In this document: in pieces, positions 4,233 to 14,223 of the stretch
Layout of the letters: each line of letters begins with the position of its first letter
Numbering within the stretch: position 1 is the stretch's first letter
IMG/VR virus record: IMGVR_UViG_2541047812_000004
Span: 1-37,579 of that record
Direction: 5' to 3' (one strand)
DNA: 37,579 nt
Origin: a virus
Lineage: Duplodnaviria; Heunggongvirae; Uroviricota; Caudoviricetes
Position numbers and translations under genes: made by a program
Notes under the pieces: model-generated
The model's input: only the letters and a program-made list of their open reading frames with translations
What the model was told of the DNA's origin: nothing
Databases searched by the model: none

Positions 4233-4531
4233 CAGGGGCTGTGCGTATCCATCAATTAAAAATTGCACCTAAGTATTTCAACGCTGTGGTTGCAGGTCAA
4301 AAGACGGCTGAACTTCGTAAAGACGATCGTGGCTATAAAGTTGGTGATGTTCTTTCTCTTTGCGAATGGAAGCATGGCGTATTTACGGGTAGGGAATGGG
4401 CCGCGGTTATCTCTCATGTGCTTCCGGTTAATGACGTCATGGCAGTTTCAGAACAATGGGTGATGCTATCAATTCGCTCATTAACCCCATTAGAAGCTTT
4501 AGGATATGTTATTGCAGGAGGTGCTGTATGA
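4229..4531 (+). CDS. Hypothetical protein (possible ASCH-like fold)
   Basis: ATG at 4229 overlaps the upstream stop (ATGA); translationally coupled. Functional call is a weak recollection only. Confidence 0.5.
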
Positions 4532-5385
4532 GCACCATCCTGAAATGGGCGGGTAATAAAACCACCATTATGTCCGAACTGAAAAAATACCTTCCTGCTG
4601 GCACGCGACTGGTTGAACCTTTCGCGGGTTCTTGTGCTGTGATGATGGAGACGGATTACCCCAGCTATCTGGTTGCGGATATTAATCCTGATTTAATCAA
4701 CCTCTATAAAAAGGTTGCTGCTGATTGTGAGGCGTTTATATCTCGTGCCAGAGCTTTATTTGAGGAAGCAAACAGAGAGGTGGCTTATTACAACATAAGG
4801 CAGGAGTTTAATTACTCCACTGAAATTACTGATTTCATGAAAGCGGTATATTTTCTGTATCTCAATCGTCATGGTTACCGTGGGCTATGTCGCTATAACA
4901 AGAGCGGGTATTTCAACATTCCCTACGGTAATTATAAAAATCCGTATTTCCCTGAAAAAGAAATTCGCGCATTTGCAGAGAAAGCCCAGCGGGCAACGTT
5001 TATCTGCGCCAGCTTTGATGAAACGCTGGCGATGTTGAAGGCGGGGGATGTGGTGTATTGCGATCCGCCTTATGACGGTACGTTTTCCGGCTATCACACT
5101 GATGGCTTCACTGAAGATGACCAGTATCACCTGGCATCCGTTCTTGAACATCGATCATCTGAAGGTCATCCGGTCATTGTTTCTAACAGTGACACACCCC
5201 TGATCCGTTCGCTGTATCGCAATTTTACTCACCACTACATCAAGGCAAAACGCAGCATCGGCGTGGCAGCTGGTGAGAGTAAATCTGCAACAGAAATCAT
5301 CGCTGTTTCCGGGCCGCGCTGCTGGGTAGGATTTGATCCTTCGCGTGGCGTGGATTGTTCCGTCGTGTACGGAGTGCGTGCATGA
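4528..5385 (+). CDS. dam: DNA adenine methyltransferase (Dam-like, N6-adenine MTase)
   Basis: Motifs [16 protein letters not shown] and catalytic DPPY ([12 protein letters not shown]). ATG at 4528 overlaps upstream stop. Confidence 0.85.
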
Positions 5386-7796
5386 GCCATGCTGATATGA
5401 ACAACTGCAGCGGCTTTAACGAGGTCGCCGCAGCATTCTCATGGAACAGCCCGAAAAAGGCCATTAACCCTTATCTGGACCCGGCGGAAGTTGCGCCGGT
5501 TTCTGCGCTTTCAAACCTGATCACTCTGTACGCTGCCGATAACGAGCAGGAACAACTGCGCCGCGAGGCACTGAGTGATCAGGTCTGGGAGCGTTATTTC
5601 TTTAATGAATCCCGTGATCCTGTCCAACGCGAAATGGAGCAGGATAAGCTAATTAGCCGGGCAAAGCTGGCGCATGAGCAGCAGCGTTTTAATCCAGACA
5701 TGGCCATTCTGGCGGACGTCAACGCCCAGCCTTCCCATATCAGCAAGCCGCTGATGCAACGTATTAAATACTTCAGCAGCCTGGGCAGGCCAAAGGCTTA
5801 TTCCCGCTATTTGCGTGAGACGATTAAGCCATGCTTGGAACGACTGGAGCATGTACGCGACAGTCAGCTATCCACTTCTTTTCGCTTTATGGCAAGCCAT
5901 GAAGGGCTGGACGGCCTGCTGATCCTGCCTGAAATGAGTCAGGATCAGGTGAAACGCCTGTCCACCTTGGTAGCTGCGCATATGAGCATGTGCCTTGATA
6001 CAGCTTGTGGCGATTTGTATGCCACCGATGATGTTACGCCAGAAGAAATCCGCAAGACATGGGAAAAGGTGGCAGCGGAAACCCTGCGTCTGGATGTTAT
6101 CCCGCCTGCGTTTGAGCAACTCCGTCGGAAAAGAAACCGCCGTAAACCCGTGCCTTATGAACTCATTCCGGGTTCGCTGGCGCGTATGTTATGCGCCGAC
6201 TGGTGGTATCGGAAATTATGGAAGATGCGTTGCGAATGGCGGGAAGAGCAGTTGCGTGCTGTTTGCCTGGTCAGCAAAAAAGCATCTCCCTATGTCAGCT
6301 ATGAAGCCGTGATGCATAAACGTGAGCAGCGCCGTAAGTCGCTGGAGTTTTTCCGTTCTCATGAACTGGTGAACGAAGACGGCGACACGCTGGATATGGA
6401 AGACGTGGTAAACGCCAGCAGCAGCAACCCTGCGCATCGCCGCAATGAGATGATGGCCTGTGTTAAAGGTCTGGAGCTTATCGCGGAAATGCGCGGTGAC
6501 TGCGCCGTTTTCTACACCATCACCTGTCCGTCACGTTTCCATTCCACGCTAAATAACGGCAGGCCCAACCCGACCTGGACAAATGCGACGGTAAGACAAA
6601 GCAGTGATTATCTGGTCGGTATGTTTGCTGCATTTCGTAAGGCGATGCACAAAGCCGGATTACGCTGGTATGGCGTGCGGGTGGCTGAGCCGCATCATGA
6701 CGGTACAGTTCACTGGCACCTGTTGTGTTTTATGCGCAAAAAAGATCGCCGCGCCATTACTGCTTTGTTGCGTAAGTTTGCCATTCGTGAAGACCGCGAG
6801 GAGCTGGGTAATAACACGGAACCACGCTTTAAGTCTGAGCTGATAAACCCGCGCAAAGGTACGCCAACAAGCTACATCGCGAAATACATCAGTAAGAACA
6901 TTGACGGGCGTGGTCTGGCTGGCGAGATCAGCAAGGAAACGGGTAAATCCCTGCGTGATAACGCCGAATACGTTAATGCCTGGGCGTCTCTGCATCGTGT
7001 TCAGCAATTCCGCTTCTTTGGCATTCCGGGGCGTCAGGCTTACCGTGAACTGCGATTGCTGGCTGGTCAGGCGGCAAGGCAACAGGGGGACAAAAAAGCA
7101 GGTGCGCCGGTACTGGATAACCCGCGCCTTGATGCCATCCTGGCTGCCGCTGATGCTGGCTGTTTTGCCACCTACATCATGAAGCAGGGCGGCGTACTGG
7201 TTCCCCGCAAATATCACCTCATCAGAACCGCTTATGAAATCAACGAAGAGCCGACCGCCTATGGCGATCACGGTATTCGTATTTATGGCATCTGGTCACC
7301 CATTGCAGAGGGCAAGATCTGCACTCATGCGGTGAAGTGGAAAATGGTTCGTAAGGCCGTTGACATTCAGGAGGCGGCAGCCGACCAGGGCGCTTGCGCC
7401 CCTTGGACTCGTGGCAATAACTGTCCCCTTGCTGAAAATTTGAACCAACAGGAGAAAGATAAATCAGCTGATGGGGACACCAGAACGGACATTACCCGCA
7501 TGGATGACAAGGAGTTGCACGATTACCTGCACAGTATGAGCAAAAAAGAGCGCCGGGAACTGGCTGCAAGGTTACGCCTGGTGAAACCGAAACGGCGTAA
7601 AGACTACAAACAGCGAATTACAGATCATCAGCGACAGCAGCTCGTTTATGAGCTGAAGTCCAGAGGATTTGATGGCAGCGAGAAAGAGGTCGATTTACTC
7701 CTTCGCGGCGGCAGTATTCCGTCAGGAGCAGGCCTGCGTATCTTCTATCGGAACCAGCGTCTGCAGGAGGATGATAAATGGCGGAACCTGTATTAA
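5382..7796 (+). CDS. A: Replication initiation protein A (rolling-circle HUH endonuclease, P2 gpA-like)
   Basis: HUH-type motif ([10 protein letters not shown]) and active-site tyrosine region ([13 protein letters not shown]). ATG at 5382 overlaps dam stop (ATGA). Confidence 0.85.
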
Positions 7797-8148: not shown

Positions 8149-8382
8149 ATGCGCATTGAAATAATGATCGATAAAGAGCAGAAGATTAGCCAGTCTACCC
8201 TGGACGCCCTTGAATCCGAGCTTTACCGCAATCTGCGCCCCCTGTATCCCAAAACGGTAATTCGTATCCGTAAAGGTAGCTCTAACGGTGTGGAACTGAC
8301 CGGACTGCAACTGGATGAAGAAAGAAAACAAGTGATGAAAATTATGCAGAAGGTGTGGGAAGACGACAGCTGGCTGCATTAA
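8149..8382 (+). CDS. DinI-family protein
   Basis: MRIEIMIDKEQ...LDALESEL...KVWEDDSWLH resembles E. coli DinI (MRIEVTIAK...ALAGEL...ETWESADDWF). ATG at 8149 with GAGG RBS. Confidence 0.75.
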   Translation: MRIEIMIDKEQKISQSTLDALESELYRNLRPLYPKTVIRIRKGSSNGVELTGLQLDEERKQVMKIMQKVWEDDSWLH

Positions 8383-8517
8383 GAAACGTTGCTGGCGTCT
8401 GAACTTGTTTCTGGCGTCAGCAAGGTTGAACAACGAGCCCTTGCGAGGCGTTAGCTCTGTAGTGCATGTCTATGCCGCATGAGATCGCATGATCGTTTGA
8501 GGATCGTTTTTGCTAAG

Positions 8518-8542
8518 GCCCGCCAGAACTGGCGGGCTTTTG
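8518..8542 (+). terminator. Rho-independent terminator (GC hairpin plus T-tract)
   Basis: gcccgccag-aa-ctggcgggc followed by ttttg. Confidence 0.6.
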
Positions 8543-8684
8543 CGTAGATCATGCAGGTGCATGAAAACCACTACATAAAGCGGGCAGGCGTGGCGGGGAT
8601 ACGAGCGCGCGCAAGTGGCTGAGTGGGGGGAAGGCAAAACAAGCACCTGCAAGATGATGGCTGAATGGAAAAGTTTGTTGAAAA

Positions 8685-10763
8685 ATGCTAATTTTAGAAA
8701 CAACATATAAGTTTTTATCCACCTCGTTAAGGCTTTCTATGAGCAGTTTCTTTTATATCCAGCCTGATTTAAAAAATGATACAAATGCTGATTTTTTGAA
8801 CTCTGTTGAAGAGTATGCAAATACTCATCAAATGCAGATTTATGCAATAATGAATCCCTTAGGGGAAAATAAATATAAATATAATAGAGACGATGTTCTT
8901 ATTATATTAAGCCCAGGATACCAATTAGCGTTCGTTGCTTTTAGTGATGATGTTGATGGTATACAAAATTTTATAGAGGATTTTATAGAGGATTTAGGTT
9001 CCTTATCAGATAAATACAATTATAAAGATACAATTGGTAGGCCTCGAGCGTGGAAAGATAAACTTGTTACTGAGTGCTCATACGCTGATTTTAGTTTCGG
9101 TAATCTTGATAAGTTTTTTGATGAAATTAAAATTATTGATGGTGTTCTGGCTAAAAAGAGTGAGTTAATTATCTCTCTCTTAACAGGAAGTATCAATAAT
9201 ATTGATAAAGTTAAAGGCAATGTGCCAGATAATATACTTGACAAGGTTAAGCAAAAGATAATTTTGTTTGACGGAGATCAGACAAGGTTTGTATACCAAA
9301 AATTTGATAAGAAAAAAGTTGTTATTCAAGGATTATCAGGTACTGGTAAGACTGAACTATTGCTTCATAAGTTAAAGGAAATATATTTGGATAAGGAGAA
9401 TTTAAATAGTAAAATAATGTTTACGTGCCATAATAAAATATTGGCAGACAATATGAGAAAGAGAATTCCAGAGTTTTTCAACTTTATGAAGGTCGAGCAG
9501 CAGATTAGCTGGAATGAAAGACTTTGGTGTGTTAATGCATGGGGTTCTCAATATGACGGTAACTCTGGCGCATATAGATATATATGTGAATATTATGGAT
9601 TAAGTTTCTATCGTTTTAGCTATGTGATGACTTTCGATAAAGTATGTAGAATTGCGTTGGATGAACTAAAAAAGTTGCCAAGCAATGAATTTAAGCATTG
9701 CTTTGACTTTATGTTAATAGATGAAAGTCAGGATTTCCCATCAAGCTTCATTGAGCTTTGCGAGCTGGTAACTCGTGATACTATTTATGTTGCTGGTGAT
9801 ATATTTCAAAGTATATTTGATACTAATATCTCTAATGAGATACAGCCAGACTTTCTTCTAAGTAAATGCTACCGAACAGATCCAAGGACATTGATGTTTG
9901 CTCATGGTTTAGGTATGGGGCTATTTGAAGAAGAACCATTAACTTGGTTAATGAATAATGAATGGGAAGCCTGCGGTTATATAGTTGATGAATCGGTAAA
10001 AGGTAAGTTAAGATTAAAGAGAGAGCCACTAAGAAGATTTGAAGATGTAACGGATGCAAAAATACATAGTGTGGAATTAATTAATTCCACATATGAAACT
10101 GAAGAAGAGAATATTTTGGGTATACTCCGTAAAATTAAGGAGGAGAATCCTACTGTTTTGGCTGATGATATTGGTATCATCTTTATTGATCAGGCTAAGA
10201 CTATATTTAAAATCGCAGACAGACTTGAATTGAGCGTGCCTAGATTATTAGGATGGAAGGTTAATAAGGCATATGAAACAAAAGAAAAAATTAAAGACAC
10301 GTTATTCATAAGTAATAAAAACCATGTAAAAGGGTTGGAGTTTCCTTTTGTTATCTGTGTTACTCGTGATATTATCAAGAGCCATTCTTATCGAAATTCA
10401 CTATATATGATGTTAACTCGTTCCTTTATTAAGTCATATTTGCTTCTGGGAGATGGGAATAAAGACTTACAGAATGAGATAGAAAAGGGGTTAGATGCTA
10501 TTAATGAGCATGGTTATATGGATATTAACGTTCCACCGAGAGAAGTCATTTCAAAAATAAGAACAACAATCAAATATGATGAGAAAAATATATCTCATTA
10601 TGATTTGGTTACAAAGGTCTTCGATGACTTACAGATTGAGCCGATATTTCGTACATCCCTGTATAATACAGTAAAAACAATCATGCCTGATTCTTTTGAT
10701 GTCGATAAAATTACTACTCTTGTTCGGTTCAACTATGAAATAATGCTTCAGGAGTCGAAGTGA
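8685..10763 (+). CDS. SF1 (UvrD/Rep-like) helicase-family P-loop NTPase with unknown ~200-aa N-terminal domain; candidate defence protein
   Basis: Helicase motifs read from translation: I GLSGTGKT, II FMLIDESQDF, III VAGDIFQSIF, IV CYRTDPRTL, VI VKGLEFPFVIC. AT-rich. Alternative start ATG 8739 (MSSFFY..., RBS TAAGG) may be the true start. Confidence 0.75.
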   Translation: MLILETTYKFLSTSLRLSMSSFFYIQPDLKNDTNADFLNSVEEYANTHQMQIYAIMNPLGENKYKYNRDDVLIILSPGYQLAFVAFSDDVDGIQNFIEDFIEDLGSLSDKYNYKDTIGRPRAWKDKLVTECSYADFSFGNLDKFFDEIKIIDGVLAKKSELIISLLTGSINNIDKVKGNVPDNILDKVKQKIILFDGDQTRFVYQKFDKKKVVIQGLSGTGKTELLLHKLKEIYLDKENLNSKIMFTCHNKILADNMRKRIPEFFNFMKVEQQISWNERLWCVNAWGSQYDGNSGAYRYICEYYGLSFYRFSYVMTFDKVCRIALDELKKLPSNEFKHCFDFMLIDESQDFPSSFIELCELVTRDTIYVAGDIFQSIFDTNISNEIQPDFLLSKCYRTDPRTLMFAHGLGMGLFEEEPLTWLMNNEWEACGYIVDESVKGKLRLKREPLRRFEDVTDAKIHSVELINSTYETEEENILGILRKIKEENPTVLADDIGIIFIDQAKTIFKIADRLELSVPRLLGWKVNKAYETKEKIKDTLFISNKNHVKGLEFPFVICVTRDIIKSHSYRNSLYMMLTRSFIKSYLLLGDGNKDLQNEIEKGLDAINEHGYMDINVPPREVISKIRTTIKYDEKNISHYDLVTKVFDDLQIEPIFRTSLYNTVKTIMPDSFDVDKITTLVRFNYEIMLQESK

Positions 10764-11389
10764 ATAAAGAGTATTATTTTAGTCTGGAGCAGGCTCAGTG
10801 TGACTGGGCCTTTAAGCCAATACGAACAAAGAAAGATGTTATTGAAATATTGATGAGATTAATCAAACTAATTTCTGTTTATACAGAACCATGCGAACAG
10901 AATGTGGTTGGGAGAGTGAAACTTCATATATCAAAGATGAGTCGAGTTTTCTTCTTTAGTGAAAATAAATATTATTCTCTTGCATTTCCTTTTTTTCTTG
11001 ATGAAATTAATGGTCAGATTTTATTTAGTAGTCCAGAAATGGAGTGTATAGATAGTTTTGTAACATCAAAAGTCATTTCTTTTATTAATGACTCCTCTTA
11101 TTTGAATAGTTCTTCTTGGGCCTTTTTTGAACCATTGTTAAATATTGAAGAACATCAAGGTATTCCCGGGTTTTGGCCTTTTCTTAGAATGTTGTTAACT
11201 TATGAGGATGGTTATATTAGATATGATGTCGATGAAGAAAGGGCTAATGGAAATCGTCATCCATTATATCATTTCGACGTCTTTTATTCTAATCCGCCAA
11301 CGTTTAAAATTGGTTTGAATGCACATTATACAAATGATGAAATGATTGATTTTCTTGATAGGGAAACTGATTGTCGTTATTTGAAATGA
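10760..11389 (+). CDS. Hypothetical protein (209 aa), partner of the helicase-like gene
   Basis: GTG start at 10760 overlaps upstream stop (GTGA) with AGGAG 5 nt upstream; translational coupling. AT-rich; no recognisable motif. Confidence 0.6.
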   Translation: MNKEYYFSLEQAQCDWAFKPIRTKKDVIEILMRLIKLISVYTEPCEQNVVGRVKLHISKMSRVFFFSENKYYSLAFPFFLDEINGQILFSSPEMECIDSFVTSKVISFINDSSYLNSSSWAFFEPLLNIEEHQGIPGFWPFLRMLLTYEDGYIRYDVDEERANGNRHPLYHFDVFYSNPPTFKIGLNAHYTNDEMIDFLDRETDCRYLK

Positions 11390-11390
11390 T

Positions 11391-11422
11391 AAAATTTAGC
11401 TGGCATTAGCCAGCTAAATTTT
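11391..11422. terminator. Bidirectional hairpin terminator between convergent genes
   Basis: Perfect 14-bp inverted repeat aaaatttagctggc / gccagctaaatttt with 4-nt loop, exactly between the partner-gene stop (11389) and the Q stop (11426). Confidence 0.65.
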
Positions 11423-11425
11423 AAT

Positions 11426-12457
11426 TTACATCGTCAATGAGTAATTTTTGAATTGTATTACTGTATTGTCTAACCAATTATTTATTTCTTCGAGTATTTT
11501 TTGTAATGGAATAAGCTCATTACGCACAAATACATTCGCCGCCTTCTCCACATCCCCAAACCCTCCAACATTATTCGGCATAATCCCCATCATTTGCGGC
11601 GGCACGCGGTGCGCAGCCATCATGTCATCACGGCTCACGTTCTTGATATTCAGAAACTCATCCTTCGCCGCGACCTCTGACAACGGGATGATCTGAAGCC
11701 CGTCCTTTTTGCCGTTAGGCGAGTACATAAACAGGTTGCGGAAGTTGCCAGGGCCTTTGGCGCTTTTCATCGCATTGCGGAGGTTGTTCACATCCTCCTG
11801 GTTCTGCGCAGCGTCGGTCATGTACATGATGAAGCCAGCATGACTGCCGTTAATGTAATACTTTCGACGGAACAGCGTGGCGGACTCATTGAGCAGGGCG
11901 GACGGAATGGCAGAAAGATAGCCGGGCAGGCCGTAGATCTCCTGGTTAATGTCCGGTTCCATCAGATGAAAAATGCTGCCTTTCGTGAACTGATACGGCT
12001 GGGTTGTCATACCGTATTGCACAAACCAGTAGGTATCCAGGTCTAACCCGCGTCGGGTGTATTTTGCCAGAGCAGGCTCAAGGGCGATAACTTCACCGAA
12101 GCGGTTCGTGCGTTTCTCCAGGTAGGCGTTACCAAATACCAGATAGTCCTGCACAAAACGGGTAAATGCCTGCTGGCTGAGCAGCGGGTGGGGGATGTAG
12201 GTACTGGTCAGAATGTTGCATTTCACCGCAATTGGTGAACTGTGATGCACGGCGGCGCGGAAGGTGCGCGCCAGTCCGTCAAAGCTTACTGGCGGCTCAT
12301 ACCAGCGATCTGTCTGTACGCATTCCACATAGTCCAGTAGTTCGCGGCGGTCCAGAACAGGAACGGGATCACCGAAGCTGAATGCTTCGGCTGTAGTTTG
12401 ACTTTTATGCTGGATCTGGTTCGTCGACGCAGCGCGGTTCTTCTTACTCTTTCCCAT
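11426..12457 (-). CDS. Q: Portal protein (P2 gpQ-like)
   Basis: About 343 aa, convergent on the cargo; ATG at 12457 overlaps the P stop; size and order match P2 Q. Confidence 0.85.
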   Translation of the reverse strand: MGKSKKNRAASTNQIQHKSQTTAEAFSFGDPVPVLDRRELLDYVECVQTDRWYEPPVSFDGLARTFRAAVHHSSPIAVKCNILTSTYIPHPLLSQQAFTRFVQDYLVFGNAYLEKRTNRFGEVIALEPALAKYTRRGLDLDTYWFVQYGMTTQPYQFTKGSIFHLMEPDINQEIYGLPGYLSAIPSALLNESATLFRRKYYINGSHAGFIMYMTDAAQNQEDVNNLRNAMKSAKGPGNFRNLFMYSPNGKKDGLQIIPLSEVAAKDEFLNIKNVSRDDMMAAHRVPPQMMGIMPNNVGGFGDVEKAANVFVRNELIPLQKILEEINNWLDNTVIQFKNYSLTM

Positions 12458-14223
12458 CAAAAAATCTCCACAATATTACTGGTATTGGCGGACTCGCCCT
12501 GCAGTGGTTCGTTAAACAGTGCGTGCATTGTTGCCCAGGCCAGATCGGCGTGGCTGGCTTCTTCGCTGCGGCTGGCTTCATAGGTCGGGCGGTTGCCACT
12601 GGCGGTGGTGGAGCGACGGATTGCCATAAAGGACTGCGCTATGTCGGTGTGTCCGGCGTCAAACTCCAGACGGCGGTGGCTGATAATGTCGTAGGCCTTG
12701 AGTACCAGGGCGTTTTTAACGTTGGGGTTGTAGACAAACTCCCGGACGGCAGGAAAGAACGCTTTCACGTTCTCGTAAACTCCGTGACCGACACCTGTCG
12801 AGTCGATACCGATATAGGTCACGTTGTACTGTTCGGTCAGTTTTTTGATGGCGTCAGCCTGGGCGCGGAAGTCCATCCCGCGCCACTGGTAACGCTCAAG
12901 AATGCGAAACTTACCGCCTGGCACGGCTGGCGGTGCCACCACCACGCATCCGGCGCTGTCGCCGTTCTGCGTACCTTTTGCCGGGTCATAACCGATCCAC
13001 ACTTCGCGCCAGCCAAACGGGCGCAGGGCCAGAGCATGAAAGTCGGTCCAGACTTCCCAACTGTCCACCATGCACGCCTGCAGCTCGCTGAGCGGGAACA
13101 CGGACGCGAGATCGTCCACGAACTCACACATCAGCAGGTTCTGGTATTCGTCCGGGCTGTATTCCATGCGCAACTGGTCAAGGTCGAACAGGTTACAGCC
13201 GCCGCGCACCGCATCTTCCACGGTGACTATCTGGCGGTATTGCCCGTCTGCGCACAGCAGGCCGGGGGCCAGATTGCTGTGGGACAGGTCGATGTCCACC
13301 TTGTCAGCTTTGTTGCGTCCACGGTTGAACAGCGCACCGGACCAGAACGGATAAGCACTGTGGGTCAGGCTGGATGGCGTGGAAAAATAGGTTTGTCGCC
13401 ATTTCTTGTGAATAGCCATCCCGGAAGCCACTTTGCGCAGCTCCTGGAATTTCGGTATCCAGAAATATTCATCCAGATACAGGTTGCCGTGATAACTCTG
13501 GGCCGTGCGGGCATTGGTGCCGAGGAAGTAAAGCGTGGCTCCGTTAGGAAGCACCATCGGATCGCCTTTTAGCTCCACCTCGACTTCTTTGGCGAAGTCG
13601 ATGATGTATTGTTTAAAGACGTGGGCCTGAGCTTTACTGGCAGAAAGGAAAATCTGGTTACGTCCAGTAAGCAGGGCGTCAATCAGGGCTTCACGGGCAA
13701 AATAGAAGGTCGCGCCGATCTGGCGAGACTTCAGCAGGTTGCGGATGCGGTTGGTTTTTCCGGCTTCCCACCAGTGGCGCTGGTAGTTGAACATGGAGGA
13801 ATGGAAGATTTCTTCCAGCTTCTCAATCTGTTCATCGGTGAAGACATTCTTTTCCGGCTGACGGCGTGGGCCTTTGTTGCGGTTGGCGACGTTAGGGTTT
13901 AAGTCGGCTTCGTTGCCGCCATTGTTAAACTTGCCGATCCGCGCGTGGCGCTCTGACTGGCGCGCCAGCAGGTCAATCTCTTTGAAATCTTTCCCTTCTT
14001 TGTGCTCCTTCATAATGAGCTGGCAGTAGCGGGCGGCGGTGGTGAGCTGCATCTGATCCAGTGGCCCATAGTCACCCCACTTGTCGCGTTTCTTCCAGCT
14101 GTGAACAGTTGCAACTTTCTCGCCCAGCATTTCAGCAATGCGGGCTACGCGGTATCCCTGAAAGTACAGCAGCATGGCCTGCCGACGGGGATCGAGATCT
14201 GCGGGTGTCAGTGTGGTGTTCAT
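12457..14223 (-). CDS. P: Terminase large subunit (P2 gpP-like)
   Basis: 588 aa; ATG at 14223; position divergent from O as in P2. Confidence 0.85.
   Translation of the reverse strand: MNTTLTPADLDPRRQAMLLYFQGYRVARIAEMLGEKVATVHSWKKRDKWGDYGPLDQMQLTTAARYCQLIMKEHKEGKDFKEIDLLARQSERHARIGKFNNGGNEADLNPNVANRNKGPRRQPEKNVFTDEQIEKLEEIFHSSMFNYQRHWWEAGKTNRIRNLLKSRQIGATFYFAREALIDALLTGRNQIFLSASKAQAHVFKQYIIDFAKEVEVELKGDPMVLPNGATLYFLGTNARTAQSYHGNLYLDEYFWIPKFQELRKVASGMAIHKKWRQTYFSTPSSLTHSAYPFWSGALFNRGRNKADKVDIDLSHSNLAPGLLCADGQYRQIVTVEDAVRGGCNLFDLDQLRMEYSPDEYQNLLMCEFVDDLASVFPLSELQACMVDSWEVWTDFHALALRPFGWREVWIGYDPAKGTQNGDSAGCVVVAPPAVPGGKFRILERYQWRGMDFRAQADAIKKLTEQYNVTYIGIDSTGVGHGVYENVKAFFPAVREFVYNPNVKNALVLKAYDIISHRRLEFDAGHTDIAQSFMAIRRSTTASGNRPTYEASRSEEASHADLAWATMHALFNEPLQGESANTSNIVEIF

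Follow-up and report, generated by a model that had tools for sequence, protein, structure and literature searches.

In the present study, we analysed a window of 37,579 nucleotides (positions 1 to 37,579 of the IMG/VR virus record IMGVR_UViG_2541047812_000004), which is a P2-like prophage, with emphasis on a 209-amino-acid (aa) protein encoded on the + strand at 10760-11389, directly behind a superfamily 1 (SF1) helicase gene of the STM2767 family. The small protein is a member of the STM2766 family of helicase-associated proteins, and a distant relationship to DUF2290 proteins, confined to a conserved C-terminal module, is supported by the comparison of sequence profiles. We propose, with a probability of roughly 0.7, that this protein is the obligate small subunit of a two-gene, Helicase+DUF2290-type anti-phage module, which forms swappable cargo at the hotspot between gpA and gpQ in P2-like phages. 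The pair was already catalogued at this hotspot in 2022 and is a divergent member of a published, validated and mechanistically unsolved type of defence system.

Pairing of the two genes across genomes

The first line of evidence is synteny. In a scan with one genome per species, 80 loci encoding relatives of the small protein were collected from Gamma- and Betaproteobacteria, Campylobacterota, Bacteroidota, Firmicutes (Lachnospiraceae, Paenibacillus), Cyanobacteria, Nitrospira and a bacterium of the candidate phyla radiation. A homologue of the window helicase (42-61% identity) was observed immediately upstream and on the same strand in 77 of the 80 loci, and the distance from the helicase stop to the start of the small gene ranged from -20 to +15 nt in 72 of these 77 paired loci. 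The commonest junction, present in 20 of the 77, was the same 4-nt overlap that joins the two genes in the window. The pairing presumed in an initial annotation of this DNA, which was made from the sequence alone, therefore extends to other genomes, and the relatives are rarely encountered apart from the helicase.

Three loci departed from this arrangement. One (L045) lies at a contig edge. In another (L079, 106-1567), an insertion of the IS3 family, with its transposase genes OrfA/OrfB on the opposite strand, has left only the C-terminal 101 codons of the relative, which illustrates how the module can decay. The third (L081, 5644-8600, on the chromosome of Virgibacillus flavescens) holds the sole intact relative found without a helicase, a protein of 250 aa with an N-terminal extension. 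Upstream of it, at a distance of 1.4 kb, are encoded a TIR-like protein of 268 aa (motif DIFLSHSHGDKK) and a protein of 133 aa that has three hydrophobic segments. The locus may have decayed, or it may indicate that the STM2766/DUF2290-like module can pair with other effectors.

Among 110 neighbours inspected at 29 loci (four nearest neighbours), no third gene was conserved. These neighbours were heterogeneous and included components of restriction-modification, Wadjet (JetD), DISARM (DrmMII), PARIS (AriA), Septu (PtuA) and MADS systems, counted without a background rate, so that no enrichment is claimed. Thus, the helicase and its small partner are a self-contained two-gene module, and their pairing is close to obligate. 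A full pair of the STM2767/STM2766 type was also observed on the conjugative dairy plasmid pUL021B of Lactococcus lactis (L082, 3983-6603), where the helicase is 34% identical to that of the window and the small protein is recovered by hhalign with a probability of 99.9%. This plasmid pair, not to be confused with the canonical DUF2290 pair of pUC047C (L083), is annotated only as an "ATP-binding domain-containing protein" and a "hypothetical protein", and its small protein is missed by PADLOC.

The STM2766 family and its conserved C-terminal module

The initial annotation had described the small protein as unannotatable, a description that is not supported, because NCBIfam names both proteins (NF053714 and NF053713) and Table S5B of Rousset et al. 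lists the pair. The small protein matched NF053714, "STM2766 family helicase-associated protein", with an E-value of 7.5e-63 and 212 bits against a cut-off of 70, and its residues 3-209 aligned with profile positions 1-207 of 207. No Pfam match at E<=1 and no PADLOC match were obtained for it, and phrog_13184 matched its residues 138-208. The STM2766 family comprises 795 clusters at 50% identity, with M60, R62, S73, P77, F78, L145, E149, G151, Y152, R154, Y155, D158, H167, P168, H171, D173, K183 and G185 as invariant residues.

Many of these residues are concentrated in a conserved C-terminal module, residues 149-202 (11204-11365, + strand), which consists of three beta-strands and a helix and is the sole part of the protein that aligns with DUF2290. 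The residues that are invariant or nearly so within the module are E149, G151, Y152, R154, Y155, D156, D158, H167, P168, H171, D173, K183 and G185. In the AlphaFold2 (AF2) model, the strands span E153-157, E170-174 and E182-186; R154, D156 and D158 are situated on strand 1, H167, H171 and D173 on a loop and strand 2, and K183 on strand 3, and the alternating spacing would place the polar residues of the module on one face of each strand. The structure prediction that had been called for gave a confident model, with a predicted local distance difference test (pLDDT) score of 89.6 and a predicted template modelling (pTM) score of 0.87, and yielded no solved structural relative; no PD-(D/E)xK, Toprim or other known nuclease fold was recognised in it. 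The retention of Asp, His and Arg amid such divergence suggests a site for metal binding or catalysis, or one that binds nucleic acid, more than it suggests a protein interface.

Second, the relationship with DUF2290 was examined from several sides. Single-sequence comparisons were weak: Pfam DUF2290 (PF10053) matched 5 of 39 aligned STM2766 members (best 2e-4), the PADLOC DUF2290 models likewise gave five weak matches among the 39 (best 6.7e-5), and the small protein of the window had no DUF2290 match in Pfam or PADLOC at E<=10. When the profile of the STM2766 family was aligned by hhalign to that of 13 DUF2290 proteins, the probability was 82.7% and the E-value 9.5e-6 over 47 columns (residues 153-201), and with a profile of 245 sequences the probability was 76% at an E-value of about 1e-5, again over the C-terminal 45-47 columns only. 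In this alignment, IRYDxD...HPLxHxD...FKIG is matched to IRIDFD...HPxxHxH...TRI, and these are the residues that each family keeps invariant. For the N-terminal 150 residues, hhalign found no homology to DUF2290 (E 0.5), the best local match being the FPF / PCPF motif; homology across the whole protein was rejected, the global alignment being meaningless. The AF2 models of the two families display the same order of elements, namely a long helix, a meander of four to five strands, three to four helices, three strands and a C-terminal helix, where the DUF2290 model was built from 7 sequences with a pLDDT of 65 and is usable for the order of secondary structure only. Iterated searches of large protein sets with the STM2766 profile returned only family members among the matches listed, and no DUF2290 proteins.

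Third, the helicase leads to DUF2290 independently. A tblastn search of plasmids with the window helicase returned close relatives and, in addition, a more distant tier with 24-29% identity (E 1e-11 to 1e-20). In all seven loci of this tier that were inspected (from Lactococcus, E. coli, Bacillus, Acinetobacter, Corynebacterium, Nostoc and Agrobacterium), the helicase gene came first and the next gene was annotated as "DUF2290 domain-containing protein", with junctions that ranged from an overlap of 11-14 nt to a gap of 5 nt. Moreover, system 119 in Table S5B of Rousset et al. 2022 (26 occurrences at the P2 gpA-gpQ hotspot) is described there as "DUF2290" with "NERD/AAA_19/UvrD_C" (PMC9122126), and its protein sequences are those of the window's pair, save one substitution in the small protein. 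The presence of this exact pair in that table places it, under the published HHpred label, in the DUF2290 type. Taken together, the profile comparisons support a distant relationship in which the STM2766 family would be a divergent sister clade of DUF2290 with a common C-terminal three-stranded module.

The helicase

The helicase gene occupies 8739-10763 on the + strand and encodes 674 aa from ATG 8739. The mechanically delimited open reading frame (ORF) reaches back to ATG 8685 (692 aa); the start at ATG 8739 (MSSFFY), with AAGG 6 nt upstream, is used by the Prokaryotic Genome Annotation Pipeline (PGAP), by Table S5B of Rousset et al. and by the homologues, and the 674-aa form is probably the real one. 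The protein matched NCBIfam NF053713, "STM2767 family DEAD/DEAH box helicase", over residues 20-687 (E 3e-298, 990.8 bits, cut-off 550), and its Pfam matches were UvrD_C_2, UvrD-helicase and AAA_19. The helicase model of the PADLOC Helicase-DUF2290 system, PDLC03002, matched it only partially (2.9e-28, residues 182-364), and the same model matched a canonical Helicase-DUF2290 member over its full length at 4.7e-298. In the family alignment, every SF1 motif that was checked is kept (Walker A/I, II, III, IV, V and VI: GLSGTGKTE, DExQD, AGDxxQ, YRT, KGLEF and TRS), and the helicase should therefore be an active ATPase and translocase. As a side observation in the N-terminal domain, both the window helicase and the copy in Table S5B carry Gln at residue 80 (Q80 in the 692-aa numbering, 8922-8924), a position held by Lys in 95% of 65 family members, with L-x-P-K-H-K-I as the surrounding consensus.

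Proposed function and alternative explanations

Herein, we propose a mechanism by which the two proteins might act. The small protein and the SF1 helicase would be produced from one mRNA, probably by translational coupling, and would most likely form a complex. The helicase might serve both as a motor powered by ATP and as a sensor, engaging foreign DNA that is being replicated or is damaged, and the metal-site-like cluster of the small subunit, Arg/Asp/Asp - His/His/Asp(His) - Lys(Arg), may represent the effector or nucleic-acid-handling site, with a block of phage (or plasmid) replication as the expected outcome. The present data show the family identity, the synteny, the geometry of the junction, the remote homology to DUF2290 and the location at the hotspot; complex formation, the defence activity of the STM2766/STM2767 clade and the assignment of the effector are inferred.

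The early suggestion of a two-gene defence module gains support from the position at the P2 gpA-gpQ hotspot, from the low content of guanine and cytosine (GC) in the cargo and from homology to the validated Helicase+DUF2290 system. The Helicase+DUF2290 pair that was tested came from a P4-like satellite of Klebsiella and blocked T7, and the window's pair is absent from the constructs cloned in that study (PMC9122126). In Pseudomonas aeruginosa, the pair PA1372/PA1371 is now classified as Helicase+DUF2290, and compensatory mutations there relieve the cost of a plasmid (PMC11637435). This result fits interference with foreign replication. The cost associated with PA1372 was reportedly linked to SOS induction in a 2015 study by San Millan. 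Some caution is called for, since no protection against the phages tested was obtained with a Helicase/DUF2290 homologue from a lactococcus.

As a more specific proposal, the C-terminal Arg/Asp/Asp-His/His/Asp-Lys cluster might be a previously unrecognised metal-dependent site of a nuclease or hydrolase, such that the small protein would be the effector delivered or unleashed by the helicase on replicating phage DNA, and specificity for the trigger or the target would be set by the variable N-terminal portion, some 150 residues long. We regard this proposal as speculative and, on balance, rather unlikely.

The main rival explanation reverses this division of labour, so that the small protein would be a regulatory, specificity or trigger-sensing subunit and the N-terminal domain and motor of the helicase would be the effector. 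This N-terminal domain of about 190 aa is conserved, with D99, E102, D103, K110 and R119 nearly invariant, and Rousset et al. 2022 labelled it NERD (nuclease-related domain) on the basis of HHpred (PMC9122126); in addition, the helicase gene PA1372 was identified as a target of the cost-relieving compensatory mutations in P. aeruginosa (PMC11637435). However, among the matches listed by hmmscan, NERD (PF08378) was detected neither in 65 N-terminal domains of the family nor in 6 canonical ones, and the D...ExK signature of NERD is not conserved in the STM2767 clade. The published label, which derives from HHpred, was thus not confirmed by HMMER. The N-terminal domains of the two helicase clades were themselves only weakly similar in a profile-profile comparison (E 0.033). 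The Virgibacillus orphan, near a pair consisting of a TIR-like protein and one with hydrophobic segments, would fit a module that is reusable with other effectors, but this is a single locus with a 1.4-kb gap. Furthermore, the residues that stay invariant in both STM2766 and DUF2290, in sequences that otherwise cannot be aligned, are Asp, His and Arg, as would sooner be expected at a catalytic or metal site than on a recognition surface. In view of these results, a reversed division of labour is a serious but minority possibility, and a helicase that engages foreign DNA together with a small subunit bearing the effector or nucleic-acid-handling site is the arrangement that we favour.

It is also conceivable that the pair behaves in the manner of a toxin and an antitoxin, with the small protein restraining a genotoxic helicase, as RqlI does for RqlH, and with the module serving mainly to stabilise the mobile element. 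The tightly coupled operon with its stoichiometric design and the carriage of the module by prophages and plasmids would be expected in this case, and RqlHI was cited by Rousset et al. as a precedent for a helicase constrained by its partner (PMC9122126). Nevertheless, the module is a rare and swappable element of a hotspot in which defence cargo predominates, it is widespread on the chromosomes of unrelated phyla, and its canonical relative protects in a phage-specific manner (PMC9122126). We therefore consider an addiction-like role unlikely, and defence remains the function proposed for the pair.

Genomic context of the cargo

In the window, the gene order is gpA, a small phrog_698 ORF, a DinI-like gene, the helicase gene (+), the 209-aa ORF (+), the portal gene (-) and the large terminase gene (-). 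The replication endonuclease gene gpA lies at 5355-7796, the DinI-like gene ends at 8382, and the portal gene gpQ (11426-12460) and the large terminase gene (12457-14223) follow the pair on the - strand. According to Rousset et al. 2022, the interval from gpA to the portal gene gpQ is a hotspot of anti-phage cargo in P2-like phages (PMC9122126). The composition profile delimits a low-GC cargo segment at 8627-11425, where the two-gene segment has a GC content of 31-34% against 52-56% in the flanking phage backbone. The complete segment was found in 5 of 5,426 complete E. coli genomes, always preceding a phage portal gene, and 1,277 of the 5,426 matched some part of the query 8400-11450; among the matches listed, the similarity of genomes without the whole segment was confined to the initial 215-227 nt of the query, from 8400 to about 8626. 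Rare presence and matches restricted to the flank elsewhere thus identify the two-gene segment as rare, swappable cargo.

These results also bear on a further explanation, in which the pair would have no role in defence, and would be an accessory helicase for replication, recombination or repair, with its loader or adaptor, that serves the prophage itself. The pair does adjoin the replication gene gpA and a DinI-like gene, and SF1 helicases commonly act in replication and repair. However, a function that serves the prophage itself is difficult to reconcile with the presence of the module in only five of the genomes, when the flanking P2 backbone matches in 1,277, or with its foreign GC content, and in many phyla the pair is located apart from phage genes, among heterogeneous neighbours that include defence components. 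A housekeeping role for the phage is accordingly quite improbable, and the segment is more readily understood as defence cargo.

Several further features of the locus were observed. Right after the stop of the small gene, between the convergent small gene and portal gene, a hairpin at 11390-11423 has a perfect stem of 15 bp and a loop of 4 nt; its folding free energy is -20.8 kcal/mol (z -7.7), and none of 200 shuffled sequences folded as well. This hairpin is probably a bidirectional terminator, and it was not flagged in the consensus terminator scan because its T run sits within the stem. On the other side of the cargo, 3' of the DinI-like gene, a GC-rich inverted repeat (GGCCCGCCAGAACTGGCGGGCTTTT) at 8518-8541, whose + strand was not flagged by the scan, looks like an intrinsic terminator that would divide the early operon of the phage from the cargo. 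The stretch GGCGTGGCGGGGATACGAG at 8588-8606 resembles the 19-nt cohesive-end (cos) sequence of P2/186-type phages, with the first 13 nt identical and 4 mismatches in total; at 3 mismatches or fewer, this cos sequence had no match. The stretch is located just ahead of the point, about 8626, beyond which other P2-like prophages of E. coli are no longer similar, and if it is cos, the cargo would lie between cos and the portal gene. Outside the present finding, a DNA adenine methylase gene (4456-5385) is situated directly upstream of gpA and overlaps it, with the same annotation in a RefSeq relative.

Start and junction of the small gene

The small gene is a 630-nt ORF on the + strand that begins with GTG at 10760-10762. 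The helicase stop TGA occupies 10761-10763, so that the two genes share 4 nt in a GTGA overlap at 10760-10763, and a Shine-Dalgarno-like AGGAG lies within the last helicase codons at 10750-10754. As read from the sequence, the junction is ...CTTC AGGAG TCGAA GTG A..., with a spacer of 5 nt. All of these elements had been described in the initial annotation and are present as described, and RefSeq/PGAP calls the same 630-nt coding sequence, overlapping that of the helicase, in an E. coli genome with 99.7% identity over this region. The description of the product as acidic, aromatic-rich and devoid of a transmembrane segment was likewise accurate: the isoelectric point is 5.06 (30 D+E against 21 K+R), F+Y+W amount to 16.7%, and the maximum Kyte-Doolittle(19) value is 1.18, hence no transmembrane segment is present. 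Translational coupling and co-expression had also been put forward; the geometry fits, with tight junctions in 72 of 77 loci, and coupling itself is suggested by that geometry.

One detail of the initial annotation has to be corrected, in that no in-frame ATG precedes the one at 10853 (M32), and the triplet at 10850, which had been named as that ATG, is TTG (L31). The start at GTG 10760 is supported by the homologues, which are about 205-220 aa long and align from residue 1-3, by the conservation of residues 20-32 (PIRxKxxxIEILM) across the STM2766 family, and by a pLDDT of 90-96 for residues 3-39 in the AF2 model. A scan for promoter-like sites returned 13 against 15 expected, which is no excess, and the + strand had none from 10376 to 10853. 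Neither a start further downstream nor a promoter of its own is supported for the small gene. Although GTG is a minority start codon and TTG 10850 and ATG 10853 are in frame, a protein of about 178 aa from a promoter of its own is scarcely credible, given that the family conserves residues 1-31 (K3, PIRxK, IEILM), which are modelled with high confidence as strand 1 and two helices, that PGAP and Rousset et al. use the same N-terminus, and that a Shine-Dalgarno-like motif precedes the GTG in a region free of promoter-like sites.

Significance

Beyond the existing catalogue entry, the present study adds a quantified synteny across phyla, an independent confirmation of the homology to DUF2290 together with its delimitation to the C-terminal module, and a list of the residues common to the STM2766 and DUF2290 clades. 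It also reveals that the Pfam DUF2290 model and the DUF2290 models of PADLOC v2.0.0 miss the small protein of the STM2766 clade, and such tools therefore probably under-count this type of system. The comparison of the clades isolates about 50 residues, among which some seven polar ones have survived divergence, and these constitute a precise target of mutagenesis for the function of DUF2290. In practical terms, the gene pair should be labelled, in this window, as a candidate defence system of Helicase+DUF2290-like type at the P2 hotspot.

Comparison with known systems

Several established systems were considered. Nhi and PD-T systems were ruled out on the PADLOC results. Hachiman (HamA nuclease and HamB helicase) and Gabija (GajA and GajB) resemble the window's pair in combining a helicase that senses the state of DNA with a smaller partner that is a possible effector, and GajB, like the window helicase, is a UvrD-like SF1 protein. 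However, HamB is a Ski2-like helicase of superfamily 2, and HamA is a DUF1837 PD-(D/E)xK nuclease that is encoded upstream; Hachiman was rejected, since no HamA/HamB match was obtained with PADLOC and the window helicase is of the SF1 UvrD-like type. In Gabija, GajA is an OLD-family ATPase-Toprim protein; the GajB models matched only short stretches of the helicase core, weakly (7.9e-7), no GajA-like gene is present, and Gabija was also rejected.

With respect to NCBIfam, the window proteins are full-length members of the STM2766 and STM2767 families (NF053714, NF053713), well above the cut-offs. These are naming models, called after genes near the fljAB region of Salmonella Typhimurium LT2, with no function or structure attached, and the literature on STM2766/STM2767 consists only of mentions of the locus in deletion mapping.

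Helicase+DUF2290 (Rst_HelicaseDUF2290 in DefenseFinder; helicase-DUF2290 in PADLOC) differs from the window's pair in that the latter represents a divergent clade, with a partial match to PDLC03002 and an N-terminal 150 residues of the small protein that cannot be aligned. In other respects the two are alike. Both are two-gene operons with abutting or overlapping genes, in which an SF1 helicase of about 670-720 aa (AAA_19/UvrD_C_2) comes first and a partner of about 210-260 aa second, and the helicases are homologous. The partners have in common the C-terminal module IR(Y/I)DxD...HPxxHx(D/H)...(K/R) and a similar order of secondary structure, and both pairs are found at defence hotspots, with prophages, satellites and plasmids as their carriers.

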